Shown piece by piece: positions 17,708 through 32,000 of a stretch of 32,000 nucleotides of DNA. Each line of letters starts with the position of its first letter. Position 1 is the first letter of the stretch. Position numbers and translations under genes: made by a program. Under the pieces are notes generated by a model that was not told the DNA's origin, did not search any database, and saw only the letters and a program-made list of their open reading frames with translations. The stretch comes from Candidatus Saccharimonadota bacterium (lineage in GTDB: Bacteria; Patescibacteriota; Patescibacteriia; 2-12-FULL-60-25), in the NCBI GenBank assembly GCA_022843095.1, contig JALHOH010000001.1:330001-362000 (forward strand), in the 5' to 3' direction.

Positions 17708-17736
17708 GGGTCGGACCCTAGCGGAAAAATGCCGTT

Positions 17737-17765
17737 TTGTCAATCGTGCCGGGCAGGGGTAGTAT
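17737..17765 (+). promoter_or_regulatory. Promoter: TTGTCA, 17 nt spacer, TAGTAT, then 6 nt to ATG 17772 (leaderless geometry)
   Basis: The hexamers and spacing are read directly from the sequence. Confidence 0.5.
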
Positions 17766-17771
17766 GATGGT

Positions 17772-19346
17772 ATGTCTATCGATGTACCCGTTTCATCTTC
17801 CGAGCAAACAGGGGTGAATCGAACCAGAAAAAAAGAGACGAATACCTTGACTCCGGATCGTCTTCTTGAAGCGTTTCGTGGCTATCGCCACAAAGAACGC
17901 CAAGCGATTCTTGGTGCGCATTGGGATCGATTTACTGCGACGGAAGAGGGGGGAGAGCAGTTGCGTGCCGCGCTCAAAGCGGAAGGGTGTAGCGACGCGT
18001 TTATCGAACGCATGATACAGGATGATTCGTTGCGAGAGCGGGTTCTGGATGTGTGCGATCGATTTGAGATGCTGGGTGAACGGTTTCAGCGGCTTGAGGA
18101 AGCGGAGGTGTATCTTGCATTGGTGGAAACGGGTCGAGAAGACGTGCGAGCGCTTACAGAAGGGGTTTCATTTGAAGGAAAATTTGCAGGAATGCGCGAT
18201 CTGAAGCCAGAAGAGTTGCGCTACACGCGTTTGCGTTACATGAACACGATGGCAAAGGAGGCGGCAAAGGATCCAAGTCATCTTGCCCAATACGCGGAAC
18301 TAGGGAGGGCGTATCAGCGTATTACGGGTAAAGCAGCGAAGGAGGAGGAATTGATGGATCCTTCGTGGCACACACAGGTGTTTGAGGAAGCGGTTCGAGA
18401 TCCAGAGGCGATGACCCGATTGGTTTCAGATCCCGTTGTGAAGGAATTTTATGAGATGTTGCATGGGCAGCGGCTAGATACGGCACACCGTCGTATTCAG
18501 CTTCGTTGGGGTCAGGCGGCTGATGGTTCGCGCATTCCGCGTATGCTTGTTGAGGGAAAGGCGGTTCCAGAAAAAGCTGACGCCAAAAATCAGACCTGTT
18601 CGGTGTTATCGTTTGTGATTGAGGGTCGTCAACCGGACCAGGAGGGTCATGCAGAACAACGTGTATTGAAGGATATCGTTGTCAAAATTGATGCGGCTCA
18701 ACGCGGGAAAAATGAAGGGATCAAATTCCTGTTGGACAAATTACCCCTCACGAAAAAGTTTAAGATTCAGGAGGTTCAGTTTAATGCCAATATTCGCATT
18801 GGATCCTACGCTTGGAGGTTCGCGGATATGGATGTGCGGGAAATGGCATCCCAGAATTTTGACGAAGAGGAATGGAATGAGATCGGGGGCCGTTCAGGAT
18901 GGGATGAAGAAAAGGCGGCAAAAGCCGAGCGCTTGGTGATGACTCGATTCGTTCTCCCGGTGTACGAGGAACAGTTTTATAAAGCGCTGGGATTAGTCCC
19001 CGCAGAAGTGCGTAAGGAACATGCCGGGGCCGTGCGACGTCTCGAGCAGGCGTTGGAAGAAATCAAAAAGAACGCAGAACTCGGTGTGGTGACGATGGAG
19101 GATTTGGCGGATTTGGGTCGGGATGAACCAGAGCTTTTTCAATTCGATAAGGACGGAAATCAAACGTCCGTACCTTCCGAGATCGTCTCCCGAGGGCACA
19201 TGGGCAAGGCGGCGATCATGGGATTGCCTTGGTATGCAAGTATCAAAACGGATCGGGTGAGCTTGAGCCGCGTGATTGATAAGTTGTACAAAGGGAGTCG
19301 AGTAAAATCCTTATTCATGAAGGCCGGTCTCGCGTTGTTTCATTGA
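17772..19346 (+). CDS. Hypothetical cytoplasmic protein, 524 aa, no recognised domain
   Basis: A long ORF with a good promoter. It has no TM segment or signal peptide and is rich in charged residues. Confidence 0.6.
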   Translation: MSIDVPVSSSEQTGVNRTRKKETNTLTPDRLLEAFRGYRHKERQAILGAHWDRFTATEEGGEQLRAALKAEGCSDAFIERMIQDDSLRERVLDVCDRFEMLGERFQRLEEAEVYLALVETGREDVRALTEGVSFEGKFAGMRDLKPEELRYTRLRYMNTMAKEAAKDPSHLAQYAELGRAYQRITGKAAKEEELMDPSWHTQVFEEAVRDPEAMTRLVSDPVVKEFYEMLHGQRLDTAHRRIQLRWGQAADGSRIPRMLVEGKAVPEKADAKNQTCSVLSFVIEGRQPDQEGHAEQRVLKDIVVKIDAAQRGKNEGIKFLLDKLPLTKKFKIQEVQFNANIRIGSYAWRFADMDVREMASQNFDEEEWNEIGGRSGWDEEKAAKAERLVMTRFVLPVYEEQFYKALGLVPAEVRKEHAGAVRRLEQALEEIKKNAELGVVTMEDLADLGRDEPELFQFDKDGNQTSVPSEIVSRGHMGKAAIMGLPWYASIKTDRVSLSRVIDKLYKGSRVKSLFMKAGLALFH

Positions 19347-19348
19347 GT

Positions 19349-19672
19349 ATGCCGAAGCGCACGAATGATTTTTTTCCTGCACAGCCGTTTTCTCAGTTAG
19401 GACGAGAGCCGGAAGATGAATTAGGGGTCGGATCGGATGCAGCGTTTTATGAATGGATGAAAGGCGATGATGAGGAAGGGACGATGGGGGCGATGTGGCT
19501 TTTTTTGGTCGAGGATCTGCGGGAAGAGCATAATCCGGCGACGATCAAACAGCTATTGGACGATTGGTATATGCGATTGCCAAAGGAGTCATTTTTTGAA
19601 CGTGTGGAGGCGATTGGATCGTTATTACCACCCTCTCACCCGTTCCATCAGGTGCGTCGCGGGTATAGCTAA
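19349..19672 (+). CDS. Small acidic hypothetical protein
   Basis: The ORF starts at ATG 19349, 2 nt after the upstream stop codon. The track's TTG start at 19343 overlaps that stop. I recognise no domain. Confidence 0.45.
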   Translation: MPKRTNDFFPAQPFSQLGREPEDELGVGSDAAFYEWMKGDDEEGTMGAMWLFLVEDLREEHNPATIKQLLDDWYMRLPKESFFERVEAIGSLLPPSHPFHQVRRGYS

Positions 19673-19683
19673 GGAAGAGGAAG

Positions 19684-19712
19684 AAAAAAACACGCATCCG
19701 AATGGATGCGTG
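19684..19712 (-). terminator. Rho-independent terminator after the IMPase-like gene
   Basis: A 9-bp stem CACGCATCC/GGATGCGTG with loop GAAT, followed by a T7 run on the minus strand. Confidence 0.7.
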
Positions 19713-19716
19713 GTGG

Positions 19717-20574
19717 TCAGGAGAGGCCGAGTGCCTCTTTCAGTTGGTTGGCGAGCGTCGTATCCCGCGCCGCGATGAGCCAGTCGTACCGGAGCGTCTC
19801 CGGATGGAACGGACCGTGCAGATAGGTGCCACCCATGCAGGACAGCGCGTAGGCAAACGCGCCGCCATCGATGAGCTGGCAATTGCGATTCACGCAACCC
19901 GCATGCCGTCCCAGCAGAAAACCGGACGAGGCATGAGGCCAATCCGGCGTCCCGTCGTAGTCCCGCCAGGGGAAGATAGGGGAGAGCCCCAGTCGTCGGA
20001 CCGCGTCTGCACGATCGGCGAACTCTTCGCCCAGGAGGATCTCCTTCGCTACGTTCTGGCCGGGAAGAACGAACGGATGGGGGAGTCTTGGATCAAGCGC
20101 ATGCGCGCTGTAATCGTACTCCCAGGTGATCAGCAGACCGTTGTGCGCCGGCAGTGAGAGCACGGTGCCGAACGGACGAAGTTCCTCATCGCAGGCGGTG
20201 GCGACCACTTCGAAGTGGGGCAATCCATCGCGGTAGTAGAGCGTGCTGTTCACGGGGTCGAGCGTGATGATCGTTTCACCCGTCCGATTCAGGTACCGGC
20301 TGATCAGATCTTTCTCGCCTTCTTCCCCCAGGAAGCGCACGTTATCGAACGTCACCGCAATCGCCGCTGCGACGAACGACTGGATGATCAGGTCTGCGTC
20401 GGTCAGGGCGGAGGCGAATCGATTTCCGCCTTTTTCTTCCGTCCTCCCGCGCTTGGACGCCTCGATGATCCCGGGTTGCAACTGGAGCGCCAGTTCGCCG
20501 GCGTCCTTGATGATGTCTCCAAGTCGGAGCAGACAATCGGATCGCGTGGCACGTGTAAATGTGTGCTTTTTCAC
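19717..20574 (-). CDS. Inositol monophosphatase/FBPase-superfamily protein with a divergent metal-binding motif
   Basis: My manual alignment to SuhB matches 'FLGEEGE' to 'ITEESGE', and 'LDPVNSTLYYRDGLPHFEV' to 'IDPLDGTTNFIKRLPHFAV'. The canonical DPxDGT motif reads DPVNST here. Confidence 0.55.
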   Translation of the reverse strand: MKKHTFTRATRSDCLLRLGDIIKDAGELALQLQPGIIEASKRGRTEEKGGNRFASALTDADLIIQSFVAAAIAVTFDNVRFLGEEGEKDLISRYLNRTGETIITLDPVNSTLYYRDGLPHFEVVATACDEELRPFGTVLSLPAHNGLLITWEYDYSAHALDPRLPHPFVLPGQNVAKEILLGEEFADRADAVRRLGLSPIFPWRDYDGTPDWPHASSGFLLGRHAGCVNRNCQLIDGGAFAYALSCMGGTYLHGPFHPETLRYDWLIAARDTTLANQLKEALGLS

Positions 20575-20679
20575 TCATTCCTCCGTTCGCGACCGTAGGG
20601 TGAATTGTCGAAAAAGTCAATCCCGCCCTTGCCAACTTTTTAGGCGCACGGTATCTTTTTCCCGCAAAACAGAAGACAT

Positions 20680-20755
20680 GGTGGCCATGGTGAAGGGGTT
20701 ATCACAGCGGGTTGTGGTCCCGTTATCATGGGTTCGAATCCCATTGGCCACCCCA
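20680..20755 (+). tRNA. tRNA-His (anticodon GUG) with genome-encoded G-1 and CCA
   Basis: Manual fold. G-1 is followed by acceptor stem GTGGCCA/TGGCCAC. The D-stem is GTGA/TCAC, the anticodon loop is TTGTGGT, the T-arm is ATGGG-TTCGAAT-CCCAT and the discriminator is C. Confidence 0.9.
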
Positions 20756-22342
20756 TCGAGAATAAACCTCCTCAACACGGGAGGTTTTCTCGTACATAGG
20801 GGCTTTTTTGAGAGGTCCTAACCGTTTTATGTCGATTTTGATGCTTTCAAGTGCGTTGGAAATGGGAACGATCCATTCCGCTTGTTTGATCGTCAGTTTT
20901 CCATCCTTCAAGATGTAGCTTGTACCGATAGTATTGAATACTTCACGCCGTGTTTTCACATCGCCAGCCGTAAAGATCGCGTATGCGTTGGTTGCAAAAT
21001 GAAACGCTTGCTCCGTGAGTTCTAACCACTTCTCGGCACGATCATGCGTCTCGTTCAAATGCTGATTCGCCTTGGTCAGTTCTTTTTGCAACGTATCCCG
21101 TTCCCGCGAGAAGGTTGCATCGTCAATCAAGTCCCGATAGCGCATCTTCGTCAGGTTATCGAGTTGCTGTTGGGTCTCATTGTAGGTTGCTTGGAGCATT
21201 GCGCGGGTTTGGGTACGCGTTTCGATTTCAGTATCGTTGCTTCGGCGCAATTTTGAGAGTGCAAAATCACGGAACTCGGGGTCAATCGTGAACTTGAGGA
21301 TTTCTTTTCCAATTTGATCTTCCAGTACGTCCTTGGTGATGGCTTGTTCGCGGCACTCGATCTCATGCTTTCTTCGTCGCGTACAACGATAGTAGGTGTA
21401 TCTTCCGGTGTTATTCGTCGTTTTGTAGTGCTTGGTTTTTTCTTCGGCTGTCACAAAACAGCCGCATGTCCCGCAACGGATAGAGCCAGTAAAAGCGAAC
21501 TCATGGATTTTTGATTTGGGTTTGCTCTTGTTGCCGAGCAAGACTTGAACGCGCTCGAACTCATCCAGTGAAATCATCGGCTCGTGTGCGCCTTGGTATT
21601 CCTTTCCGTTGTAGCAGACGATTCCCGCATAGAACTTATTGTTGAGCATCTTGTAGACCATGCTGTCCGCAAGAGGCTTATCGCCGGAGCGATGCCGTTT
21701 GGGAGTGAGAAAACCCCATTCGCCGTTTGCGATCTGTACGATCTTGGTTGGGTTGTAGTTTCCCGTAAGCATCAAATCCCACATCTTTCGCACCAGATGA
21801 AATCGGTCTGGGTCTTTCACGATAGTCTTGGTCAAAACATCATTCAGGTAGCCCGTAGGTGCACGAGCAGGGAGCCAGCCCTTTGAGACCTTGCTATCCA
21901 AGCCGCGCAGCGTATTTTTGCGGAGGTCGAGGATGAATTGGTTGGCCATGCCGCTCTCGACGCTGAACAGGAGTACGTTATCCGTCGGTTGGTATTCACG
22001 ATCCATCGTGCGGATGGATTTGATGACACCATCTTGGAGCATCATTTGAAGGCGACCGCTGTCTACAGGATTTCGTGATAGGCGATTGATCTGCCAGCAG
22101 AGGATACCGTCTGCTTTACCCTTCTCGATCTGCTCAAGGACTTTTTTAAACACGGGACGCGAGGACGGACGCTTGGCGCTCTTGGCCTCGATCATGGTTT
22201 CGACCACATTCAACTTGAGGAGCTGGGCGAGTTCCTTGAGACGGTCTTTTTGGTCATCAATGGATTGCACTTGGCGATCCTCGCTCTCGGATGACTTTCG
22301 CGCGTACAGGATGTAGCGCAGGTTATTTTCGGGGAGTTTCAT
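20726..22342 (-). CDS. Large serine recombinase (resolvase/invertase N-terminal domain, recombinase domain, zinc ribbon, coiled coil)
   Basis: The motifs are 'YARKSSESEDRQVQSIDDQ', 'INRLSRN' and the zinc ribbon 'CGTCGCFV...YTYYRC', followed by a long helical insert. The last 9 codons overlap tRNA-His. Confidence 0.88.
   Translation of the reverse strand: MKLPENNLRYILYARKSSESEDRQVQSIDDQKDRLKELAQLLKLNVVETMIEAKSAKRPSSRPVFKKVLEQIEKGKADGILCWQINRLSRNPVDSGRLQMMLQDGVIKSIRTMDREYQPTDNVLLFSVESGMANQFILDLRKNTLRGLDSKVSKGWLPARAPTGYLNDVLTKTIVKDPDRFHLVRKMWDLMLTGNYNPTKIVQIANGEWGFLTPKRHRSGDKPLADSMVYKMLNNKFYAGIVCYNGKEYQGAHEPMISLDEFERVQVLLGNKSKPKSKIHEFAFTGSIRCGTCGCFVTAEEKTKHYKTTNNTGRYTYYRCTRRRKHEIECREQAITKDVLEDQIGKEILKFTIDPEFRDFALSKLRRSNDTEIETRTQTRAMLQATYNETQQQLDNLTKMRYRDLIDDATFSRERDTLQKELTKANQHLNETHDRAEKWLELTEQAFHFATNAYAIFTAGDVKTRREVFNTIGTSYILKDGKLTIKQAEWIVPISNALESIKIDIKRLGPLKKAPMYEKTSRVEEVYSRWGGQWDSNP
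20764..20790 (+). terminator. Hairpin terminator of tRNA-His
   Basis: An 8-bp stem AAACCTCC/GGAGGTTT running into TTTTCT. It lies inside the 3' end of the recombinase ORF on the other strand. Confidence 0.6.
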
Positions 22343-22384
22343 ATAGGGTCATGATTGGTTTATTGATTTGCTATACAAAAAGGA

Positions 22385-22498
22385 CGGCTCTGGTTGATCC
22401 AACTCGCAATACGAAGACGCATCGCTTTGCTGGCAGAGCCGCCCATTTCGGGCAGCAAAAACAATAAAAGCGTCCTCTTTCTCACGGGTTGGATCAAC
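22385..22498. repeat. Nested/crossing inverted repeats in the 160-nt spacer upstream of the recombinase gene
   Basis: There are three arm pairs. GTTGATCCAAC (22393-22403) pairs with GTTGGATCAAC (22488-22498). CGGCTCTG (22385-22392) pairs with CAGAGCCG (22434-22441). An imperfect hairpin spans 22426-22459. Confidence 0.6.
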
Positions 22499-22502
22499 GG
22501 TG

Positions 22503-23216
22503 TCATATTACCTTGATTGATTGCTTTTGTGAACGTCTGGTGAGCATGTCCGTGGCGGCTTCAAGCATACCGGTACTCGGTAATCTATCCATCTTGCGGA
22601 GCAGGCGGCGGTATCGTTTTGTCGGCCTTCCATGCCAGTATTTGACCCTCAAGGCCGCTTCTTTCTCATCCAAGCCGTTGAACAGGCATTTGCCCAAAAC
22701 ATGCCACATACCCGAATGGTTCTCTTGCTGGCTTTGATAGGCAAGATCATGACAGTGGCGGCATCCGTAGTATTTGCCCGCACCATAGAGGACGCCTACC
22801 CTCCTTCTGCAAGGTATTCCGTTTTTTATCAGAGGACAGATGAACCAGCACCGCTTGCCACCGAAGTAACAGGGCGTGCTCACAACTTCCACCCTGTAAT
22901 CAATATCACTTTTTACCCCATCAAAGCCCGTGTGGGTGTAGTGGAAACGAAAATGAGGATCATCCCCGTACACACAACTGATAACGCCTATGCTGCTTTT
23001 ATTGCCTGACCAGCCATGCGTCCATGTCGAGGTACCGCTTTGGTAATGGCCATTCAAATAACCGTGCTTTTTGAGAAAGCTGATGTTCAACGCACGAGAG
23101 GTTTCACAATTGTCCTTCGCCATAGGCTCGAAATCAATAGGACTTGGAGGGAATAAATCAAACGTAGTGACTTTATTTTTCCACCATTTTCCATCATTTT
23201 TTCCAAACGAACTCAC
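22503..23216 (-). CDS. Hypothetical protein with C-terminal Cys4 zinc-ribbon
   Basis: The 237-aa protein contains 'CWFICPLIKNGIPCRRRVGVLYGAGKYYGCRHCHDLAYQSQQE'. I recall this motif type in uncharacterised proteins of mobile elements. The 4-nt ATGA overlap joins its start codon to the upstream gene's stop codon. Confidence 0.6.
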   Translation of the reverse strand: MSSFGKNDGKWWKNKVTTFDLFPPSPIDFEPMAKDNCETSRALNISFLKKHGYLNGHYQSGTSTWTHGWSGNKSSIGVISCVYGDDPHFRFHYTHTGFDGVKSDIDYRVEVVSTPCYFGGKRCWFICPLIKNGIPCRRRVGVLYGAGKYYGCRHCHDLAYQSQQENHSGMWHVLGKCLFNGLDEKEAALRVKYWHGRPTKRYRRLLRKMDRLPSTGMLEAATDMLTRRSQKQSIKVI

Positions 23217-23761
23217 TCCCCAACGGGAGCTTGTCCGTCCATGTTCACGTCTACGACCGCAGGGATCGGTACGTCTTCCCCGTTCCGTGCAGCTTGTATG
23301 CGTTGAAGTTCGTGGAGCGTGCGGAAAAAGGATCGTTCAATGGCCGTCAGGTAGCGCAAGACCTTTTCCGTGAGATAGCTGGTCAGGGGAACGGCTTCGA
23401 TTGCTTCTTCATGACCTTCCTCTGAACCGTAGATCAGGGTTGGAAATTGCTCGCTTTTGACCTTTTCCTTTGCCGCCTCGCTTCCATGCCGTTCGACGGC
23501 GAGTGCACGTCGCATACGCCACATATCGGCCACGAGACGGTCTACAAGGAACGCCTCCATCTCCCCTTGAGGTGCCAGCTCACTCGTGATGGAGCGGCAT
23601 AGCTCGTCGAGAGTTTTGGCGTCCTCCGATTTGAGTAATACTTCACGCGATAGCAGGCCATGACGGATCGCGTTCTTACTCACGATAGCTTTGCCTTCCT
23701 CGGTTTTTGCGCCGCCACCCCGATGGGCGACGGCTTCTTGCTTGGATTGTGCTTGTTCCAT
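23213..23761 (-). CDS. Hypothetical protein, 182 aa
   Basis: An ORF in tight operon spacing that contains 'SKNAIRHGLLSREVL'. I cannot assign a function. Confidence 0.5.
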   Translation of the reverse strand: MEQAQSKQEAVAHRGGGAKTEEGKAIVSKNAIRHGLLSREVLLKSEDAKTLDELCRSITSELAPQGEMEAFLVDRLVADMWRMRRALAVERHGSEAAKEKVKSEQFPTLIYGSEEGHEEAIEAVPLTSYLTEKVLRYLTAIERSFFRTLHELQRIQAARNGEDVPIPAVVDVNMDGQAPVGE

Positions 23762-23763
23762 AG

Positions 23764-23985
23764 TTATTTGAGTTGATCAGATGTGACCTCGTTAGACCAC
23801 CAGTAAAGGAATCCTTCGACGTTATCGCGCATGTCTTTCCTGATACGGACGACGTTCTCATCGTTCAGTTCACGGTCTCCCCATCGGTCAAAGACATGCT
23901 CCCTGACGCACTCCATCGTGAGCCACTTGAGCTTGCGATACAGCTTGATGTTGATCCCGACTTTCTTGGATAATCGACGTTTCAT
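23764..23985 (-). CDS. Small basic hypothetical protein, 73 aa
   Basis: The ORF ends 2 nt before the next start codon. It could be a regulator or recombination directionality factor, but that is speculation. Confidence 0.4.
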   Translation of the reverse strand: MKRRLSKKVGINIKLYRKLKWLTMECVREHVFDRWGDRELNDENVVRIRKDMRDNVEGFLYWWSNEVTSDQLK

Positions 23986-24009
23986 ATTGGTTACAGTGTC
24001 AAAATTGGT

Positions 24010-26211
24010 TTAGCGATTGCGTAGGTTCTTGCACTCATCACTCATGAACCAGCGGAAATCCTCTTTCAGGCGGATGACCTTTTCCGGCTGGCCGACCATT
24101 CCATCGCGCTCCGTGATGTCGCAGACGTTGAGTGCTTTCAGGGTTTCCATTTCCTTCAATGCGGTCGTCTTCGAGCACTGCAAGAGTGCTTCGACCTGCG
24201 TGGTCTTCAATTCGCCACCGTTTTCGATCAGGATGTTCACAAGCTTGGCGCGTGTTGGTGGAGAGCTATCTACGGCCAGCTCGATCACGAATCGCAGATC
24301 GTCATCCGTAATTTGTGACCGACCCGCAACAACGGCATGGCCACGGCAGAGGTTGTAAAACAATTGGGCGATGCGGTCGGGTTTTTCGATGACGGGCGGT
24401 TGGTAGTCGTATTCATCTGGTGCGTCATCCCGCTTGCTCACCTTCCATAGGCTCACGATGCCGCGCAGATTGGCCAACAATTTGGCACAGCGCGTAATGA
24501 CAAGCAGGCACTCGCGGGGATCGCCTTCGCGCTTCCATTCGATCCCTTCCTGATGGCGATGCCATAGCCCAAACAGGAAGTATTTGGTGGCAATGCGGCA
24601 CGCACGCTCTTTGTCTTTCACTGCCGTCGAAACGAGTTGATCGGCCAGCTCGCCCTCGCTCTTGTTGCGACCGTTCATGTTGAGGAAGAACAGACGTGAC
24701 CCGAGGCTCCCCATAATGCGCCAGACACGCGACGAGATCGGCGTTGAGGCGGCGAGCATCATGAACAGGTACTCCCCGATGTATGCACGCTCCCCGTGGA
24801 TGCCGGAATCGGTTTTGAATCCCTCCCCATCGAGTACGCGCGTCAGGATGCCAAGGCACTCCTGCAAGTCGTCTTCACGCTTGGAAAAGAGGGTCGCCAA
24901 ATCACGCACCAGGAACATGTGATAGCGAAGACGTGGGAGCAGGTCGATTTCCGCGAGCTTTTCGCGCTTCACGTTTGAGGCGTTGGAAACGAATGATGCG
25001 GGCGTGAACTTGTCCGAGGCGTATGTCAGTCCTTCGAGACCGTCAAAGAAATTGGCCGTGATTGTCTTGCCGCTTGATGGAACATCTACCAGCACGAGCG
25101 CAAAGGGATTTGTTACGTCCTTGATGAGGAGCTGGGAGATGACCGACAACCCAACTTCGGCGGCAAGCGCACAGTCGGGGAATTGTTGGCTCACTACATC
25201 CTTCCAATCGGCAAAGGAGACCTCTTTTTCGACTTTTTCAATCCGTTTGATCCGTGTCTTGGCATCGAAACGGCTAACAGCGAGCGCCAAGTCCATGAAC
25301 GATTGCGGATCGCCGCCGTACTTCATGAAGTAGTCCGTCACGTCTTTCAATCCCTCGCCCATGTCCAAGGGGAGACGGGTTTGGTAGAGCTTCAACGTCT
25401 CGATGCTTTTGAGAGCATCAAGCACGCGCACCGCGCCTTTTTCGCCTTCGGAATCGTTGTCATAACAGACGCAGACGGATTCGAGACCAGAGAACTCTTT
25501 TACCCATTCCTGTTTGAACGTGCCGCATCCGCCCGTTGAGGTGATCGCGGGGATGCCTTTCGAGAGGAGAATGAGACAATCGAACTCGCCCTCGCAAAGC
25601 ACGAGGCTTGTGGCACCCTTGAACATCTGCCAGTCGAACAGCTCGTGTGTCGCTCCCATCGGCCAGACTTTCATCTTGGGGAGTTTGTCGTCTTTCGTTT
25701 CGGGATCACGCCGGAGCTTCATCAGGGCGTATTCGTCTGGGTTATCTTTTTTGGGGACTGGAATGGTGATCCAATTCGCGCCATAGAACTCTCCCCAACC
25801 CAACTTGAATTGGGTGATGAGGTCATCCGTGATGCCGCGTTCGTTCAGGTAGCGGCGGATATTGTCGGGGAGTGCTTGATGACAGCGCTCGACCAGTTCC
25901 TTCGTGACTTCTTCGACAGGTCTTTTGCGCGGTGCGCTTTTCTTGTCGTGATTATGTAGGGGCTTGGGAAACAAATCCTTCGTGTCATCACCGAGATGTT
26001 TGGCGAGCGTGAAGATGTTGCCTTTCTCCCCGCATTTTTTGCAGTCAAATTGGCTCGTTGATTTTGAGAAATAGAGATGCTGTTCGTTCGCACGGCTGTC
26101 GTCATCACAACCGTTGAACAAGCACTTCGTGACAAGCTCGTCGCCGACCTCACGGAAGGTGATGCCTTTGGAGGTCAGGTATTCGACGATGCCGATTGGT
26201 TCTTCATTCAT
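24010..26211 (-). CDS. Primase-helicase-like replication protein (Cys4 zinc finger, Toprim, P-loop NTPase, C-terminal wHTH-like region)
   Basis: The zinc finger is 'CLFNGC...CKKCGEKGNIFTL'. The Toprim motifs are 'LVLCEGEFDCLIL' and 'VCYDNDSEGEKGA'. The Walker A-like motif is 'VDVPSSGKT'. The protein is 733 aa. Confidence 0.75.
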   Translation of the reverse strand: MNEEPIGIVEYLTSKGITFREVGDELVTKCLFNGCDDDSRANEQHLYFSKSTSQFDCKKCGEKGNIFTLAKHLGDDTKDLFPKPLHNHDKKSAPRKRPVEEVTKELVERCHQALPDNIRRYLNERGITDDLITQFKLGWGEFYGANWITIPVPKKDNPDEYALMKLRRDPETKDDKLPKMKVWPMGATHELFDWQMFKGATSLVLCEGEFDCLILLSKGIPAITSTGGCGTFKQEWVKEFSGLESVCVCYDNDSEGEKGAVRVLDALKSIETLKLYQTRLPLDMGEGLKDVTDYFMKYGGDPQSFMDLALAVSRFDAKTRIKRIEKVEKEVSFADWKDVVSQQFPDCALAAEVGLSVISQLLIKDVTNPFALVLVDVPSSGKTITANFFDGLEGLTYASDKFTPASFVSNASNVKREKLAEIDLLPRLRYHMFLVRDLATLFSKREDDLQECLGILTRVLDGEGFKTDSGIHGERAYIGEYLFMMLAASTPISSRVWRIMGSLGSRLFFLNMNGRNKSEGELADQLVSTAVKDKERACRIATKYFLFGLWHRHQEGIEWKREGDPRECLLVITRCAKLLANLRGIVSLWKVSKRDDAPDEYDYQPPVIEKPDRIAQLFYNLCRGHAVVAGRSQITDDDLRFVIELAVDSSPPTRAKLVNILIENGGELKTTQVEALLQCSKTTALKEMETLKALNVCDITERDGMVGQPEKVIRLKEDFRWFMSDECKNLRNR

Positions 26212-26220
26212 AATTGATGG

Positions 26221-26403
26221 TTAGAGAGTGGGTAAAGTCTCCGCGATACGCTGTTCTTCGTCCGTCAGTGGGCGATAAACGATTTGCATGAGACGGATCA
26301 GGCTGATGGCTTTGGCTTGTGCCTCGGCTTTTTCGATGCGTCTCCCGCATTTGCGCTCGTAGAGGTTTTGGAACTCCTCGATGTCTTCCTCGGTGAGCTG
26401 CAT
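26221..26403 (-). CDS. Small hypothetical protein, 60 aa
   Basis: The ORF is packed between neighbouring genes, 6 nt from one and 9 nt from the other. It is acidic and helical in character. Confidence 0.4.
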   Translation of the reverse strand: MQLTEEDIEEFQNLYERKCGRRIEKAEAQAKAISLIRLMQIVYRPLTDEEQRIAETLPTL

Positions 26404-26409
26404 AGGAGG

Positions 26410-26673
26410 TCACGAGGAATAGAGGCGGTTCTTGATGGCGCGGATAGAATCGAAGTAGGAGCGGGCGTTGAGCTTCAAGCGATCATTCCAGTAATCCTCA
26501 ATGTCGCGCTCAATGGTCTTATCGCGGCGGAAGATGAACTGCGCCTTGTTGGGGTTGCCGTCCTTGTCCACGGCGTAAAGCACATGTTCAAGACAAGACA
26601 GGGCGCAGGTAAGTCCGAGGTCGAAGGTCAAGAAAAACTCCTCTTGAGAGAGGTGCTCAAGTTCGTTTGTCAT
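26410..26673 (-). CDS. DUF5659-like small protein
   Basis: The segments 'FDLGLTCALSCLEHVLYAVDKDGNPNKAQFIFRRD' and 'DIEDYWNDRLKLNARSYFDSIRAIKNRLY' resemble the DUF5659 pattern I recall from CPR and phage genomes. ATG 26673 is preferred because the longer start overlaps a terminator hairpin. Confidence 0.5.
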   Translation of the reverse strand: MTNELEHLSQEEFFLTFDLGLTCALSCLEHVLYAVDKDGNPNKAQFIFRRDKTIERDIEDYWNDRLKLNARSYFDSIRAIKNRLYSS

Positions 26674-26720
26674 AGGTGAGGTAATTGATGAGTAGGAGTG
26701 GCCTTGGCTTCGCGCGAAAT

Positions 26721-26746
26721 CAAAATAACCACATGACAAGTGTGGT
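26721..26746 (-). terminator. Weak hairpin terminator after the two-gene cargo operon
   Basis: A 6-bp stem ACCACA/TGTGGT with a 7-nt loop, followed by TTATTTTG on the minus strand. Confidence 0.4.
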
Positions 26747-26779
26747 CTTTTGCGTCGGGATTATCTCCCGCGACTTTCT

Positions 26780-27760
26780 CTATTTTGCGGTGACTTTCTC
26801 TATCGGATTTTGGATTTTATAGGCGTTTTCGCCTCCGGCGGTCTTCGTTCCGACGATGATTTTATTCACAGTCGCCTCGTTTCTGGCTTTCTTTGCGAGC
26901 TTCGTGACGTTGCTCCGATAGTCGTTACAGTATTTTTGCGCGGTGCGTGCCGAATCTACTTCATGCGTTTCGGTGCAGTAGCGGTACAACTCCGCGTGGC
27001 TGACAGGATACGCGTAGTCTTGCATCAAGCGCTCGACGAATGAAAACTCAACCGTGTGACGCGGGATATTACAAAGGGTCTTACCGTCCAATGTCAGATC
27101 GCCGTTTTGATTCAGAAAAACACGCTGACCAGACCCTTGTACTGCGGTCTCAAGAGCTTTGATATCTGCTCGCAATCCCTTTTCATCAAGTGAAACAAAA
27201 AGCGTTGGATCAATGAAAGAAACCTGCTCCGTCATGCCGAGCGCGGGCGAATGTATCGAAAAGACGATGACAGGGGTGCTCTGGGAGAGGGCATTGATAA
27301 GCTCAACGTGACGCTGTGAGGTATCGTCTCGTAAAAATAGAACCTTTCGTTTGCGTTTAGCCACGGTGATCGCGCCGACTTCCCAAAGCTCATCGGCAAC
27401 AAGTTGCTTGATGTCGATCTCGGCTCCAAGAGCACAGCCGAACGAGGTGAGGAAGGTGCTGGTTTCGACCTGTATGGTGGCCACCTCATCTCTTGAAACG
27501 GATTGCGGCGCGGTATTTTCATTGCGATCACAAAGCGCAAGGAAACGCCCATCGGGGAGTTTATTCCACTCGATGCGATGCTCACCGTCACAAGAGGCGC
27601 ATGAAACAGTTTTGCTTAGCTCTCCGTCTTGAAGAATTGCAGCGGCTTTCAAGCCGACAATGGCCTCATTGGAAAATAACTCCCCGATGGTGCAGGCGGC
27701 GATCTGTCCGACTGGACGAACGGCAAGAAGCTCAAGGAGCTTTTTCAGCGGGTTCGTCAT
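26780..27760 (-). CDS. Hypothetical protein B (326 aa) of the cargo operon, with a possible C-terminal winged-helix DNA-binding region
   Basis: The start is ATG 27760 ('MTNPLKKLLELL'), overlapping the upstream gene by 29 nt. It has a 'CASCDGEH' cysteine pair. The C-terminal 'HTVEFSFVERLMQDYAYPVSHAELYRYC' loosely resembles OmpR/PhoB-type wHTH. Confidence 0.55.
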   Translation of the reverse strand: MTNPLKKLLELLAVRPVGQIAACTIGELFSNEAIVGLKAAAILQDGELSKTVSCASCDGEHRIEWNKLPDGRFLALCDRNENTAPQSVSRDEVATIQVETSTFLTSFGCALGAEIDIKQLVADELWEVGAITVAKRKRKVLFLRDDTSQRHVELINALSQSTPVIVFSIHSPALGMTEQVSFIDPTLFVSLDEKGLRADIKALETAVQGSGQRVFLNQNGDLTLDGKTLCNIPRHTVEFSFVERLMQDYAYPVSHAELYRYCTETHEVDSARTAQKYCNDYRSNVTKLAKKARNEATVNKIIVGTKTAGGENAYKIQNPIEKVTAK

Positions 27761-28919
27761 AATCAATGCCCCATGCCTTGAGGTATGCTTTTGCTTTCTT
27801 GTGCAGCTCTTTCTCTCCGAGGTTGCAACCGTTCGGCGAACGCAGATCAATTGTCACGCCACCTCGCTTGCCCTTGCCAGGAAACTTCATGGCGATTTTA
27901 GCTTGTGTGATTTCATGCACCTTGTCCGTTGCGAGATCGAGATGGCGGTTGTCGGCGAGGCGATAGATGGCCTCCTTGCTCGCTTTTTTATCAACCTCGA
28001 TAAAAGTCTTTTCTCCTTGGACAAACGGATTGACTACGCCAAGCATGAACACTTTTACATATTCAACCTGATCTTCCGCCTTGGTCACGAAAGCGAAGTT
28101 TCGGTTTTTCAGTTTGTCGAGGTTGAATACACGTTCGTTTGCGGGAGTGCTCGTATCCTCACCGAGGATTGTCTTACGGAAAATGTCGCGCAGTTCATGC
28201 ACCTCATCTTTTCCACCGTCAGCCTTGGTACGCAGACGACCTTCATCGGGGTAGTAGATGAAGATTACCTCCTTGGCGGGCTTGATGATGCCCGTCGTGG
28301 TGAGTTCACCTCCCTTGAAAATCTCCTCATCTTTGGCCTGATCCTCAATGAGGACACGGAAGCAGACTCGGTTCTCCAACAGCTTGCGTTCCGCCTTGCA
28401 GTTACGTCCGATGAAGTGACGATTGACGTAGTAGGCACTGACTTCCTTTTCCAACATGCCCTCCTTGTCAGTCGTTTCGGTGATTGATACGCGTTTCAGG
28501 TTCAAAGTATCACGCCACCCATTGCGAGATTCAATCTCGAACCATTCAAGTGCTTCGCCAAAAACATCTTCATGATGATTGAGAAAGAACCAGAGCGCCT
28601 TGCCGCAATTGTTCCAGTCTTCCATTTCGGGTGGTAACTCGATGCCTTGAGACGTAGCCAAGATGTGAAGCAGGGAGAATCCGGCTGGGCACGCGAGTTC
28701 ATAGACCTCCATCGTTTCCTTGTTCACGGTGTCCCGTCGATCTTCGGACAGATTTTCAAACGCATCAGCAAATGCGTTCGCCAGATCATCCTTTGTCGTT
28801 TTTTTCCCATCCTTGAGCGCAAGCGCCATGTCCTTTTGCTTGGCGTATTCCTCAAGGAGGACGCCATTGTTTGCGGCACGTCGGGCAAACGTCCGCAGAT
28901 CGTATTCACGATTTGCCAT
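27732..28919 (-). CDS. Hypothetical protein A (395 aa) of the cargo operon
   Basis: The start is set at ATG 28919 ('MANREYDLRTF') because a strong promoter lies at 28958-28987, inside the longer track ORF. I recognise no domain. Confidence 0.55.
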   Translation of the reverse strand: MANREYDLRTFARRAANNGVLLEEYAKQKDMALALKDGKKTTKDDLANAFADAFENLSEDRRDTVNKETMEVYELACPAGFSLLHILATSQGIELPPEMEDWNNCGKALWFFLNHHEDVFGEALEWFEIESRNGWRDTLNLKRVSITETTDKEGMLEKEVSAYYVNRHFIGRNCKAERKLLENRVCFRVLIEDQAKDEEIFKGGELTTTGIIKPAKEVIFIYYPDEGRLRTKADGGKDEVHELRDIFRKTILGEDTSTPANERVFNLDKLKNRNFAFVTKAEDQVEYVKVFMLGVVNPFVQGEKTFIEVDKKASKEAIYRLADNRHLDLATDKVHEITQAKIAMKFPGKGKRGGVTIDLRSPNGCNLGEKELHKKAKAYLKAWGIDYDEPAEKAP

Positions 28920-28957
28920 AGAGAGTAATTTTTGGTTTGGTTGTAAAAATCGCCCGT

Positions 28958-28987
28958 ATTTTATGCATTTTTGGGCTTCGAGGTCAA
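28958..28987 (-). promoter_or_regulatory. Promoter of the cargo operon: TTGACC, 18 nt spacer, TAAAAT
   Basis: Near-consensus hexamers read on the minus strand, about 38 nt upstream of ATG 28919. Confidence 0.5.
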
Positions 28988-29091
28988 GTGTGAGCCTCTT
29001 AACCATCAAGATAAAAAGTCTTTGACGAACCGACCTGAATATCAGCAATCGAGCATTGCCTACAAGATTCCGCGATGTTATTCTCAGACTC

Positions 29092-29469
29092 ATGCTGAGC
29101 GGTTTCTGGCAAAAATGCGTTAAGACATTTTTCATTTTCGCTGTTTTTACAACGGTGTTTTCTTTTTGTGGACATAATGAGCTACGGGCTGATGTTCCTG
29201 GGTGGGGCAGTAACAACGGCCAAGCCCCTGTTTCAGGGCAAGTAAGTTCTTCATCCGTTCCATGCTGTAGGCATACCACGGAGCAGGTACAAGGATTTCA
29301 ACAGAATTTTAAACGTCAGGAAGAGCTTGTTGGTAAAAAGAGAGAAAGTGTGAGTGGATTTGAGTTGGCGTATACTCCTCACCTTAAACCTCTCACAAAG
29401 TCGCCTTTTGTTGGTCTGTCTCCGCCTCAAAATACAAGGCTTTCAATACTCCAGACATTCCGATCCTAA
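29092..29469 (+). CDS. Small putative secreted protein (125 aa), leaderless geometry
   Basis: TGtTATTCT (29076-29084) lies 7 nt before ATG 29092. The N-terminus 'KTFFIFAVFTTVFSFCG' is hydrophobic. An inverted-repeat hairpin follows the stop codon directly. The Ser-rich, low-complexity body makes coding status uncertain. Confidence 0.3.
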   Translation: MLSGFWQKCVKTFFIFAVFTTVFSFCGHNELRADVPGWGSNNGQAPVSGQVSSSSVPCCRHTTEQVQGFQQNFKRQEELVGKKRESVSGFELAYTPHLKPLTKSPFVGLSPPQNTRLSILQTFRS

Positions 29470-29470
29470 T

Positions 29471-29511
29471 AAACATCGTTTGGGAATGTTTCTAATTCTT
29501 AAACGATGTTT
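29471..29511 (+). terminator. Perfect 11-bp inverted repeat AAACATCGTTT / AAACGATGTTT with 19-nt spacer (terminator or protein-binding site)
   Basis: Read directly from the sequence. It starts 2 nt after the stop codon of the 29092 ORF and its 3' arm ends in TTTT. The loop is unusually large for an intrinsic terminator. Confidence 0.4.
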
Positions 29512-29614
29512 TGGCATGATTAAATACCTTTTTCCCCTATTCCTGCTCGTGACGCTTGGAGCTGGCTGCGAGTCTAAGATTGAATGGCACGCTGGTCCCA
29601 CTTAAAAATTTCAG

Positions 29615-29630
29615 AATGAATTAATTCATT
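29615..29630. promoter_or_regulatory. Perfect 16-bp palindrome AATGAATTAATTCATT (operator candidate) just upstream of TATACA (29641-29646) and the DsbA-like gene
   Basis: Read directly from the sequence. Its centre lies about 21 nt upstream of the -10-like hexamer. Confidence 0.45.
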
Positions 29631-29648
29631 TAAGTCCCTCTATACATT

Positions 29649-30464
29649 ATGTCCATGTCTCCCGAACAACCAACGCAAGACCATCAAAAACACAAGACTT
29701 CCATTTGGGATCAGATGCCTCCTCGTTTCGCGTTCGTCTTTGGTTTTGTCATAGCTATCGCACTTTCGAGCATGGTCGGCCTTGGTTTTGTCCTCACCGT
29801 CCTATTAAAGTCCCCAAGCGCAAATGCAGCTATTGTAGCCCAGAATTACCCGACACCTTCAGCTAATCAACCGCAAGTACCCTCTCAAGCTCCACAGCCG
29901 GAACAAGCTGGGCCGGTAAAAGCCGTTGATCCTAAAGTTGATCACATTCGTGGCGATAAAAATGCGAAGGTGTTCGTGATCGAGTATTCCGATTTCGAGT
30001 GTCCATTCTGTATTCGTCACCATCCAACCATGCAGAAGCTGGTGGATGAATATAAAGGGAAGGTTGCATGGGTCTATCGGCATTTTCCGCTCAGCTTCCA
30101 CCAGAACGCGCAAAAAGAAGCGGAGGCTTCAGAATGTGCCAATGAACTTGGTGGGAATGATGCCTTTTGGAAGTTTGCTGACAAGATATTTGAGCGAACG
30201 AAGGGCAACGGCACCGGTTTTGCTTTAGACCAGCTCGCTCCATTAGCCAAGGAAATTGGTTTGGACGAAGGAAAATTCAAGACGTGTTTGGACAGCGGTA
30301 AGTATGCTCAAAAGGTACAGGATGATATGGCTGCCGGTTCCACGGCGGGCGTGAATGGAACTCCGGGCAATATCGTCTGGACCAAGGATGGGAAGTCCCA
30401 GCTTGTATCTGGCGCTGTACCGCTGGAGGCGCTTAAAGCGGTTATTGATCCGCTCTTGAAATGA
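29649..30464 (+). CDS. Membrane-anchored DsbA-family thiol:disulfide oxidoreductase (CPFC active site)
   Basis: The N-terminal TM segment is 'FAFVFGFVIAIALSSMVGLGFVLTVLL'. The thioredoxin-fold region is 'VIEYSDFECPFCIRHHP...YRHFPLSFHQNA' and 'GVNGTPGNIV'. Confidence 0.8.
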   Translation: MSMSPEQPTQDHQKHKTSIWDQMPPRFAFVFGFVIAIALSSMVGLGFVLTVLLKSPSANAAIVAQNYPTPSANQPQVPSQAPQPEQAGPVKAVDPKVDHIRGDKNAKVFVIEYSDFECPFCIRHHPTMQKLVDEYKGKVAWVYRHFPLSFHQNAQKEAEASECANELGGNDAFWKFADKIFERTKGNGTGFALDQLAPLAKEIGLDEGKFKTCLDSGKYAQKVQDDMAAGSTAGVNGTPGNIVWTKDGKSQLVSGAVPLEALKAVIDPLLK

Positions 30465-31036
30465 TGAATGTCCGTCGTCTTGCCATTCTACAAAGCATAT
30501 CGGAGACGCTGAAGCGCCCCCGATATGCTTTGCTGATGGTCGGATCCAGTTTTACGTTTTGGCTTTTGAACCTCTACATTCCAAACAGACAATCGATCCG
30601 CTTGTTTCTTGGTCTTGATACCCTGACGCTCTTTAAGCGTTGGGGGATTGTGAAGGGTATTATTACTAACTACGTAAGTAATCTTGGACCAGCCACGATC
30701 TTTCAGAGTCTGCTCATCAGCATCCTCTTTGGTCTAAATCTCAGTCTTGTTGCATATCTTCTTGTTCGGAGAAAAACGCTCATTCAAGATGCGTCTTCTG
30801 CTGCCAGCGGAATTCTCGGATCGGTCAGTGCGCTTCTCGGAATTGGATGTTCGGCTTGCGGCTCTGTTCTTTTGACTACGTCTTTCTCGATTTTCGGGGG
30901 AGTCGGACTTGTGAGCCTATTGCCATTCAAGGGAAAAGAGTTTTTCTACCTTAGTCTCATTCTTCTTACATTATCGATCTACTTGATCGCCAAAAAAATG
31001 ACTGAACCTCTCGTATGCAAGACAGTAAAAACCTAA
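30461..31036 (+). CDS. Polytopic membrane protein with an intramembrane CSAC motif (unknown family)
   Basis: The 191-aa protein has about four hydrophobic segments. 'LLGIGCSACGSVLL' lies within the third. The start codon overlaps the DsbA-like stop codon (ATGA). Confidence 0.6.
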   Translation: MMNVRRLAILQSISETLKRPRYALLMVGSSFTFWLLNLYIPNRQSIRLFLGLDTLTLFKRWGIVKGIITNYVSNLGPATIFQSLLISILFGLNLSLVAYLLVRRKTLIQDASSAASGILGSVSALLGIGCSACGSVLLTTSFSIFGGVGLVSLLPFKGKEFFYLSLILLTLSIYLIAKKMTEPLVCKTVKT

Positions 31037-31041
31037 CTTCT

Positions 31042-32000
31042 ATGACATCATCCGTGAAATCATTCAAACGTATCTTGACCTACGCGGCCATTGGGCTAGC
31101 AAGTATTGGGCTCGTGTGGTTTGTGGCGTATGAGCCTGGAGGTCCCGACAGCGAACCCGGTCGCCACATCAATGTTCAAGCTGACGATTGGACCAAGGGC
31201 AATAAGGATGGCCAGGTGACCTTGGTAGAGTATTTGGATTTCGAATGCGAGGCATGTGGGGCATATTACCCAGTCGTAAAGCAGCTTGAGGCAGAATTTG
31301 GGGATCGTGTTCGTTTTGTTTCGCGGTATTTTCCGCTTCCTGGCCATAAGAACAGCATGACCGCCGCGAGCGCAGTGGAAGCGGCGGGTCGCCAAGGGAA
31401 ATTCTGGGAAATGCACGATACGTTATTTGAAAACCAGAAGGCATGGGCCGAAAAGAGCATGGCGGATCCGAAGCTGTTCCTCGCGTATGCTCAAAAAATT
31501 GGATTGGACATGGCCAAATATCAAAAGGATGTCAATGATTCATCGCTGCGTGATCGCATCGAACGAGATAAGAGATCCGGCGAAGCGCTTGGCATACAAG
31601 GCACCCCATCTTTTTTTCTGAACGGAGAAAAGATCAGCAATCCTCGAAGCTACGAAGAGTTTAAGACGCTCATTTCCGCAGAACTTCTTAAAACGCAGGC
31701 CGCCAGTCTTCCGCCGAAAGGCGAAAAAGTCCATGAGCATGCTGATTTTAAGGTCTATATAGATGGACAAGCTTTCGACTTTAAGCCTTCAAAATTCCAA
31801 TCTTCGAAAGAGAATCCGCTCGATCCTGACGCCCACCTCCACGACGGAAACGGAGATGTCACCCACAAACACAGAAAAGGGATTACGTTGGGATATTTCT
31901 TCAAATCCTTGGGCATGAGCTTTGACCAGAATTGTTTTGTTACCGATCCTAAAACGCGCTACTGCAATGGAGAGGATAAAAAACTTAAGCTGTATGTGAA
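31042..32000 (+). CDS. Second membrane-anchored DsbA-like protein (CEAC active site) with a His-rich C-terminal extension; 3' end lies outside the window
   Basis: This ORF is my own translation and is absent from the track because no stop codon falls in the window. It begins 'MTSSVKSFKRILTYAAIGLASIGLVWF'. It contains 'LVEYLDFECEACGAYYP' and 'GIQGTPSFFLNG', then 'HEHADFKVYIDGQAFDF...DAHLHDGNGDVTHKH...ITLGYFFKSLG'. Confidence 0.7.
   Translation, partial: MTSSVKSFKRILTYAAIGLASIGLVWFVAYEPGGPDSEPGRHINVQADDWTKGNKDGQVTLVEYLDFECEACGAYYPVVKQLEAEFGDRVRFVSRYFPLPGHKNSMTAASAVEAAGRQGKFWEMHDTLFENQKAWAEKSMADPKLFLAYAQKIGLDMAKYQKDVNDSSLRDRIERDKRSGEALGIQGTPSFFLNGEKISNPRSYEEFKTLISAELLKTQAASLPPKGEKVHEHADFKVYIDGQAFDFKPSKFQSSKENPLDPDAHLHDGNGDVTHKHRKGITLGYFFKSLGMSFDQNCFVTDPKTRYCNGEDKKLKLYV

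Follow-up and report, generated by a model that had tools for sequence, protein, structure and literature searches.

A Probable Integrative Element at tRNA-His of a Patescibacterium, with a Serine Integrase and a Predicted DnaG Primase/MCM-like AAA+ Fusion

Introduction

What kind of genetic element lies beside a bacterial tRNA-His gene when a serine recombinase and a putative replicase are recognized next to it, and genes for virions or conjugation are not? This question is raised by a 32,000-nt stretch of contig JALHOH010000001.1 (assembly GCA_022843095.1, positions 330,001 to 362,000), referred to here as the window. Nine open reading frames (ORFs) are packed on its minus strand between positions 20726 and 28919, in a block that spans from tRNA-His to about 28,991. 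A previous annotation made from the letters alone, called here the original prediction, had described a minus-strand block from tRNA-His to about 28.99 kb that contained a large serine recombinase, a spacer, six packed ORFs and a two-gene operon. Every item that it listed was found in the sequence, and the end that it gave coincides with position 28,991, beyond which a 94%-identical copy from a different sample no longer matches. The G+C content of the block is indeed lower than that of the backbone (0.512 versus 0.554), by a smaller gap than had been implied by counts on single 60-nt lines.

Many groundwater communities are dominated by bacteria with tiny genomes, the members of the candidate phyla radiation (CPR), or Patescibacteria. 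To our knowledge, their mobile elements are almost uncharacterised. Comparison of the window with related loci (numbered L001, L002 and so on) indicates that the block quite probably belongs, in integrated form, to a large family of elements that insert site-specifically into genomes of Patescibacteria and would replicate themselves. With its abundance, mapped att sites, a conserved core and a cargo hot spot in which restriction-modification and other accessory genes are plentiful, such a family would be a concrete vehicle of horizontal gene flow in the phylum.

Integration at the 3′ End of tRNA-His

The predicted integration target is a tRNA-His(gtg) gene on the plus strand (20681–20755), identified by ARAGORN and by the Rfam tRNA model. 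A tRNA is found at the 3′ end of the integrase gene in all 11 of the readable related copies; it is tRNA-His in ten and tRNA-Trp in a distant one. In the window, and likewise in L002/L061, L005, L062, L063, L064 and L065, the integrase ORF runs antisense into the 3′ end of tRNA-His; L001 and L066 terminate in tRNA-His sequence. In L068, the primase of which is 52% identical, the integrase overlaps tRNA-Trp in the same design. The ORF in the window crosses the att site and terminates within the antisense tRNA-His, with the junction in its last 30 nt.

The element-side arm of the att site (P arm; 20756–20793, minus strand) encodes the C-terminal tail of the integrase and is conserved in all family members. 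Across all loci the 44-nt P arm is 86%–100% identical, and seven tRNA-His variants abut it. Read on the plus strand, it contains a hairpin (AAACCTCC...GGAGGTTTT) followed by a T-run, which replaces the native terminator of tRNA-His.

Two further kinds of junction were identified. In contig CAYXLJ010000001.1 of GCA_964465335.1 (record 70,763–113,499; L004/L005), two head-to-tail copies lie by tRNA-His with a period of 20,529 nt. Past the integrase of the first copy, an attP-like junction (...TTCTCGATGGGGT|CACATCGTCGAGG...) is observed; past the integrase of the second, the same arm is joined to tRNA-His (...TTCTCGATGGGGT|GACCAGAG...), and the next-copy junction is also given as ...GATGGGGT|tRNA. 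A Logan contig of the same element (20,537 bp) stops exactly at the branch point of the junction. From its sequence, the tandem could reflect genuine integration in tandem, or circular and integrated forms could have been assembled together. The other kind is the far junction of L063 (position 32, 10.9 kb from tRNA-His), where a terminator hairpin is followed by TGGGGT and then by the P′ arm with 23 of 24 matches. Judged by its sequence, this hairpin is the native tRNA tail and terminator, displaced to the far junction.

The attP-like (L004), P-arm-plus-tRNA (10 loci) and terminator-plus-P′ (L063) junctions share TGGGGT alone, a 6-nt repeat. This places the predicted crossover within the terminal ACCCCA of tRNA-His (20750–20755, plus strand); homology to other elements stops at 20750. 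The integrase would recombine attP of the element with the extreme 3′ end of tRNA-His through the shared core TGGGGT/ACCCCA. Upon integration, the element-side arm carried in the last integrase codons would rebuild the end of the tRNA and supply a new terminator hairpin, and the native terminator would land at the far junction. Since the P arm encodes the tail of the integrase, its C terminus differs between the two forms of the element, with 556 aa in the excised-type form (L004) and 539 aa in the integrated form (L005). Dyad symmetry within attP amounted to only 12 of 24 matches, which is too weak to use. An integrative element, as originally proposed, is therefore upheld by the att logic at tRNA-His in 10 related copies, the attP junction of the tandem and the attL of the decayed copy L063.

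Related Copies in Different Genomic Settings

The closest copy, L066, comes from another sample and is 93.8% identical in DNA to the window over 8.27 kb (28,991 to 20,732). The T-arms of the two tRNA-His genes differ, and beyond the core L066 has a methyltransferase gene and a LOOT RNA. L001 shows about 90% DNA identity, with integrase and primase each 96% identical in protein, and its tRNA-His is yet another, third variant. Homology to L004 stops at 28,938. Whatever the G+C content of the host flank (0.475–0.64), that of the element is 0.44–0.51, and modules are mosaic among elements. Between the window and L066, dN/dS is 0.02–0.16 for eight genes, and these genes are under purifying selection. 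Decay also occurs: in L063 the integrase is split and the 395-aa gene is truncated.

The original prediction had stated that it would fail if relatives all carried the block at the same place. Superficially this is what was seen, with both of two species representatives occupied. The objection is overturned by copies of about 90%–94% identity that lie beside three tRNA-His sequences with different cargo, by the host-independent G+C content and by the decayed copy.

The Serine Integrase and Its Structured Leader

The 538-aa integrase (20726–22342, minus strand) had been called a large serine recombinase, and the domain searches agree. Its catalytic domain matches Resolvase (PF00239, 6e-18, residues 11–155) and carries the motif YARKSSESEDRQ; Recombinase (PF07508, 1.3e-9) and Zn_ribbon_recom (PF13408, 7.4e-10) are also present, and residues 6–493 match the integrase family phrog_95 at 1.5e-70. 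Identity to the integrases of nine related loci is 74%–96%, and dN/dS against L066 is 0.04.

The 160-nt spacer noted earlier for its inverted repeats lies directly upstream of the integrase gene (22343–22502, minus strand) and contains conserved helices with compensatory changes. Three helices are recognized, two of which cross, indicating a pseudoknot or an alternative fold, and the leader ends in a stem and a T-run. Over 8 elements its mean identity is 74%; 96.7% of the cells in the alignment pair, and 7 pairs are changed on both sides. G-U pairs are tolerated on the integrase-sense strand only. The motif is present upstream of the integrase genes in the window, L001, L002, L004 and L063–L068. 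In L068, which targets tRNA-Trp, the fold is retained with a different sequence and further compensatory changes. A scan of the window gave no Rfam match for the motif. With its last stem trailed by a T-run, the leader could be an attenuator or an anti-terminator. It would gate the expression of the integrase.

The Replicase and the Conserved Core

Six packed ORFs, including a Toprim/P-loop protein of 733 aa and a DUF5659 protein, had been proposed upstream of the leader, and both assignments are confirmed by profile searches. The 733-aa replicase (24010–26211, minus strand) matches Toprim_2 (PF13155) at 6e-10 as well as phage primase PHROGs. Among its homologues the Toprim residues E207, D251 and D253 and the putative zinc ligands C30, C57 and C60 are invariant, and C35 is nearly so. 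A profile built from 36 homologues matched the DnaG and T7 gp4 primases in the PDB (8e-15 to 6e-7) over residues ∼115–310 only; no MCM was matched by this profile. In the AlphaFold model (pLDDT 83), the N-terminal half resembles the zinc-binding and RNA polymerase domains of Aquifex DnaG (Foldseek, 7.8e-13) and Twinkle. The C-terminal half resembles MCM2-7, MCM8/9 and RavA (3e-6 to 2e-4), with a TM-score of only 0.24–0.5. The Walker A residues G381-K382-T383 are invariant in the homologues, and AAA_lid_2 matched at 1e-3, under its cut-off. The N-terminal OB-fold/zinc domain of MCM was not found in the replicase; its residues 1–330 are of the DnaG primase type.

On the predicted structure, the replicase would be a fusion in which a zinc finger and DnaG-type Toprim primase (∼1–330) precede an MCM-like AAA+ domain and, at the C terminus, a winged helix. 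Literature searches returned no description of such a fusion or of the element family. The excised circle would be replicated by this protein, with the winged helix recognizing the origin. The element had been called replication-competent; the primase/AAA+ fusion is present, and replication itself is what we infer from it.

The replicase has 944 homologues, and the best 120 of the 944 are 50%–96% identical and nearly all full length. In phage records, plasmid records and IMG/VR contigs only its N-terminal part is matched; the full-length protein was found neither in 50,697 phage records nor in IMG/VR. The P arm is absent from IMG/VR as well, where primase and profile searches gave only generic matches to the N-terminal primase part.

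These comparisons bear on whether the block is a prophage in decay, stripped of its structural genes. The integrase does match a phage integrase PHROG, and the N terminus of the primase resembles phage primases at 25%–34% identity. Such an origin is nevertheless very improbable, as the architecture free of structural genes recurs with intact genes in more than 10 loci of different hosts, virion PHROGs are missing even among the variable proteins, and the full-length replicase has no counterpart in the phage collections just named. The original prediction had seen no virion or conjugation genes, and profile and fold searches of the ORFs bear this out. No match to capsid, portal, terminase, tail, lysis, relaxase or type IV secretion system (T4SS) families was obtained for any window ORF with Pfam, PHROGs, NCBIfam and PADLOC, and relaxase, coupling protein and T4SS genes are also missing from the gene tables of the related loci. 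An ordinary prophage was rejected on the Pfam and PHROGs results for the window, and an integrative conjugative or integrative mobilizable element on those of Pfam, NCBIfam and the gene tables. PADLOC made no defence-system call on the window beyond a Toprim resemblance.

The replicase gene is flanked by small conserved genes. A 73-aa ORF (23764–23985, minus strand) is 50%–91% identical in 7 loci (dN/dS 0.16), and a 60-aa ORF (26221–26403, minus strand) is 74%–100% identical in 8 loci (dN/dS 0.06). The DUF5659 protein (PF18903, 1.8e-10) is encoded by a 109-aa ORF (26410–26739, minus strand), which is 87 aa in the gene calls of most homologues. The position of its gene is constant in every related locus, including L067 and L068, with primases of 52%–54% identity, in which DUF5659 still accompanies the small ORF and the primase. 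In the readable contexts the order of the core is conserved: the two-gene unit, DUF5659, the ∼60-aa ORF, the primase-helicase, the ∼75-aa ORF, a variable module, the structured leader and the ∼535-aa serine recombinase.

The Two-Gene Unit and the Swappable Module

At the far end of the block, genes for a 395-aa protein (27732–28919, minus strand) and a 326-aa protein (26780–27760, minus strand) overlap. The original prediction had regarded them as a separately promoted and terminated operon. A promoter-like site (TTGACC-18-TAAAAT, 28958–28987, minus strand) with 10 of 12 consensus matches and a terminator-like hairpin past the unit (26727–26747, minus strand) are present. Both are consensus or pattern matches from a scan, and sites of this kind are no commoner in the block than in shuffled sequence.

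The 395-aa protein belongs to a fast-diverging family with a helical N-domain and matches phrog_37634, of unknown function, at 6e-14. Its AlphaFold model (pLDDT 92.9) has as best folds CENP-N, RdgC and a phage "recombination-associated protein," at E values of about 1e-3 and TM-scores of 0.3–0.4. Against the RdgC structures 2owl and 2owy, Foldseek gave E values of 1.6e-3 and 9.5e-3 and TM-scores of 0.30–0.41, a weak resemblance. No sequence-profile match to the RdgC family was found in Pfam or the PDB, and the fold search showed no capsid, portal or terminase fold. The 326-aa protein has a Cys-rich zinc-ribbon-like segment, with C54, C57 and C77 invariant in the family. At its C terminus a weak OmpR-type winged-helix signal is seen; Trans_reg_C was matched in one of 10 members (E = 0.03).

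The existence of natural fusions of the two (P0126, 687 aa; P0127, 698 aa) indicates that they act together. A concatenated 395+326 query gave a single match in a word-indexed search, and 676 representative clusters at 50% identity in an exhaustive one; an alignment of the 395-aa family proved too diverse to scan loci with. Against their L004 counterparts the two proteins show 75% and 59% identity. The syntenic alleles of L001 and L002 are only about 24% identical to the 395-aa protein and have no match to its partner; between elements, alleles of the 326-aa protein range from 59% down to 26% identity or are undetectable. From these features we infer that the pair acts on DNA: the RdgC-like protein and its zinc-ribbon/winged-helix partner would serve the origin, the partition or the protection of the element. 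In L067 (7367–9373), a 668-aa RVT_1 protein is found in place of the pair.

The variable module between the leader and the 73-aa ORF consists in the window of two genes. The Cys-rich ORF next to the leader (22503–23216, minus strand) is listed as 237 aa, and its homologues begin at the Met at 23123. They were found only in L066 (95%), L065 (76%) and L064 (52%), and conserve C79, C90, C99, C115, H117 and C118; no Pfam, PHROG or PDB profile was matched. Searches of PDB profiles with the 395-aa, 326-aa and 237-aa proteins were empty. The second half of the module, a 182-aa ORF (23213–23761, minus strand), is 99% identical to that of L066 and 59% to that of L065, and shares just its first 22 aa with L001; homology to L001 breaks at 23696, within this ORF. 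The 182/237-aa module is confined to L064–L066, and other members carry proteins of 95, 106 and 520 aa or of 155 and 505 aa.

Cargo and the Question of Packaging

Distal to the two-gene unit the cargo varies freely, and relatives always have kilobases of it. Restriction-modification genes are represented by a methylase with a ResIII helicase, by NgoFVII/Z1 with a cytosine methylase and Vsr, and by type I HsdRSM. Other cargo includes ParB with a second recombinase, cupredoxin, HMA and P-type ATPase genes (metal resistance), and a Cas4/RNase_H-like nuclease. L004 (17408–18816) carries an RVT_1 and bAvd pair resembling a diversity-generating retroelement. The far side of the restriction-modification cargo of L002 (1–2534) holds nrdD/nrdG and a 163-aa gene with a G+C content of 0.49, which resembles that of the element (0.475) and not that of the host flank (0.64). 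Going by this composition, the genes of an anaerobic ribonucleotide reductase may belong to the L002 element, and its length may be above 16.5 kb.

A LOOT RNA (RF03000, gathering score 46.4) is present in L066 (365–484, 85.6 bits), L064 (4557–4680, 81.7 bits) and L065 (6950–7070, 70.8 bits), in each case on the minus strand. It lies just distal to the two-gene unit, is divergently transcribed and occurs in exactly the three relatives that have the 182/237-aa module. In the window there is no Rfam match to it, even at E ≤ 10 in 28,800–29,700. This orphan RNA motif thereby gains a genomic home in an integrative element of Patescibacteria, and the leader upstream of the integrase adds a further conserved structured motif.

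The cargo region of L068 (6447–6917, minus strand) has a TerS-like GP3_package gene (2.4e-20), the family's only hint of a hijack of phage packaging.

A satellite of the phage-inducible chromosomal island (PICI) or P4 kind would be excised and replicated only upon infection of the CPR host by a helper phage and packaged in helper capsids. Such a satellite would be expected to combine an integrase, a primase-helicase, small ORFs and cargo, as the element does, and the TerS-like gene of the distant L068 also fits. The 395-aa protein falls in a PHROG, and its fold matches uncharacterised phage proteins. We consider this explanation unlikely for the window: neither the window nor its ten closest loci have a small terminase, capsid-remodelling, head-tail adaptor or helper-derepression gene, no family member was found in IMG/VR, and the sizes of the elements (10.9 kb for the decayed copy, 20.5 kb and >16.5 kb) do not suggest a packaging constraint.

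The Right-Hand Boundary

The element had been drawn to end at 29,650. This position is not a demonstrated boundary and was rejected as such, as no att site is present there and no far junction was found in the window. A repeat search of the window and a search with the tRNA 3′ end (3 mismatches) gave no far att site. The sole match to ACCCCA/TGGGGT, at 31,603, lies inside the second DsbA frame without a P′ arm and is read as chance.

Past the block, an A+T-rich stretch (28992–29648, G+C 0.425) with no convincing gene and no similarity to any compared locus occupies the place where relatives have the LOOT RNA or an HTH_17 gene and cargo. It is followed on the plus strand by a DsbA-like gene (29649–30464, Thioredoxin_4/DSBA), a gene for a membrane protein with a CSAC motif (30461–31036), the CxxC of which lies in a predicted helix, and a second DsbA-like gene (Thioredoxin_4/DSBA) with a long C-terminal extension, which begins at about 31015/31042 and runs off the end of the window. 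The CSAC protein matches no Pfam family. A DsbA and membrane-protein pair, with a CAAC motif, is also found on L007 (129–2050). The G+C content is 0.478 for 29649–32000 and 0.467 for 28,992–32,000, and the tetranucleotide correlation of the latter interval to the backbone is 0.44–0.52, versus 0.79–0.89 for chunks of the backbone itself. The DsbA-like genes and the CSAC protein are possibly cargo or older island material. Since the window has no far junction and its composition is foreign-like up to 32,000, the element either runs past this position or is truncated. The genes of this copy are intact, and its far end is either situated past the window or missing.

The latter case would make the window copy an immobilised remnant, now a chromosomal island, from which the distal part (cargo, LOOT RNA or HTH gene and far att site) has been deleted. 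It would account for the missing far junction. In addition, three relatives of the same type have the LOOT RNA ∼80 nt past the point where homology is lost, the window lacks it, and decay is known in the family from L063. Against this, the nine core genes are intact, with purifying selection relative to L066, and the composition up to 32 kb is still foreign, as expected of continuing cargo. Other members also reach past the 7–10 kb visible upstream of the core, as the G+C content of the nrdDG region of L002 relative to its host flank indicates. On balance a remnant seems rather improbable.

Several observations weigh against the assignment to an integrated member of the family. A far junction of the TGGGGT-plus-P′ type was not found in 28.7–32 kb, by BLAST with the attP region of L004 or by a P′ scan, and as the far junction is not within the window the mobility of this copy is putative. 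The tandem junction could stem from homologous recombination or from assembly. No empty tRNA-His site was found; both species-representative genomes with this tRNA-His are occupied. A scan of contigs with the flanking 285-aa protein for an empty site found nothing, and a scan of metagenomes with DsbA gave 54 loci, none of which had tRNA-His. For the replicase, the MCM-like label is drawn from a predicted structure with low TM-scores (0.24–0.5), and a search for tandem iterons found none. Replication, the origin, the helicase activity and the roles of all the small ORFs are putative.

Comparison with Known Elements

Among known systems, staphylococcal cassette chromosome (SCC) elements appear to have the best-matching logic, and SCC elements and tycheposons are the closest apparent analogues. 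The Cch helicase of SCC elements is said to be MCM-like, as Mir-Sanchis reportedly described in 2016. As in SCC/SCCmec, a large serine recombinase inserts the element into the 3′ terminus of a housekeeping gene that is conserved and is not destroyed. Next to the recombinase gene, SCC elements carry conserved replication functions that include a hexameric helicase as well as a primase; in pattern 1 this helicase is the MCM-like Cch (PMC7581432). Both systems also share a highly conserved non-coding stretch directly upstream of the recombinase gene, variable cargo, the absence of virion and conjugation genes and an unclear route of transfer. In contrast to SCC, which is found in another host phylum and targets rlmH, the element here uses the 3′ end of a tRNA, and the integrase ORF itself spans attP. 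The primase of SCC is separate and based on an A-family polymerase, whereas here a DnaG/Toprim primase is fused to AAA+, and the RdgC-like/winged-helix pair and DUF5659 are part of the element. Membership in SCC is not indicated: Pfam found no Cch (DUF927) or D5_N/Primase_Cterm signature in the window, and the NCBIfam matches of the integrase to XisF, CcrB, CcrA and CcrC are weak and far under the cut-offs, with 71, 60 and 55 bits for CcrB, CcrA and CcrC versus cut-offs of 700–900.

Tycheposons of Prochlorococcus likewise integrate site-specifically by a tRNA and may have a primase and a helicase as a replication module; shared integration and replication modules link cargo-carrying variants with PICI-like ones, decayed copies occur, foreign material piles up distal to the tRNA, and the streamlined hosts lack conjugation (10.1101/2020.12.28.424599). 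Tyrosine recombinases are present in 910 of 937 tycheposons and leave partial-tRNA repeats (10.1101/2020.12.28.424599). The element here differs in its serine recombinase and 6-nt repeat, in its replicase and accessory proteins, which are unrelated by the searches made, and in its Patescibacteria hosts.

PICI and P4 satellites resemble the element in their integrase, primase(-helicase), small regulatory ORFs, size of roughly 10–20 kb and conserved sites. They differ in that a packaging or capsid-redirecting gene is absent from the window copy and its close relatives, and no helper has been recognized. In P4 satellites the helicase domain of the alpha protein is of the SF3 kind; the corresponding domain here would be an MCM-like AAA+ instead. 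Archaeal cryptic integrated elements are small replicons with an integrase and an MCM-family or primase replicase and without virion genes (PMC6563490). They have tyrosine integrases and a true MCM with an N-terminal OB domain. The element described here is bacterial and has a serine integrase, and only the AAA+/winged-helix part is found, fused to a Toprim primase.

The element would be a new family-level variant within a known type of integrative element. The combination of a serine recombinase with an MCM-like helicase and no transfer genes, as in SCCmec, suggests a recurrent solution for integrative replicons without capsids. It is possible, if doubtful, that the family serves Patescibacteria at large as the main integrative and self-replicating carrier of their accessory and defence genes, neither virus nor conjugative, and is spread as naked or vesicle-borne DNA through host competence. 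At its centre would stand the DnaG/MCM-like/winged-helix fusion, together with an integrase that straddles attP and changes its tail with the state of integration, a pseudoknotted leader that controls this integrase and, in one sublineage, the LOOT RNA. The serine integrase, the roughly 50-bp attP, the tRNA-His attB and the candidate replicon could also provide parts for genetic tools in organisms that are hard to manipulate.

The Host and the Left Side of the Window

The host backbone had been described as CPR-like. Relatives of the window ThrRS, at 65%–78% identity, are named as Patescibacteria group, Candidatus Uhrbacteria and Candidatus Magasanikbacteria, and Candidatus Uhrbacteria is also the annotation of an integrase of at least 90% identity. 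A host in the Patescibacteria, probably Uhrbacteria-like, is supported by these matches, in agreement with the earlier description.

Two observations concern the backbone itself. A tmRNA with a long tag peptide, ANIVSKVKNAIASAFRVPAFAASVA, is predicted by ARAGORN on the minus strand (10995–11425), and the Rfam match (83 bits) confirms it. Between tRNA-Arg(tct) and tRNA-His (16835–20680 in the window), gene content varies among related hosts. The interval holds Sir2, a 524-aa ORF (G+C about 0.50) and an IMPase-like gene in the window, and Band_7 and adenylate kinase in L002; L062 and L065 were also compared. In L064 (11496–13807), a tyrosine integrase adjoins tRNA-Arg. This interval may be a second hot spot of integration.

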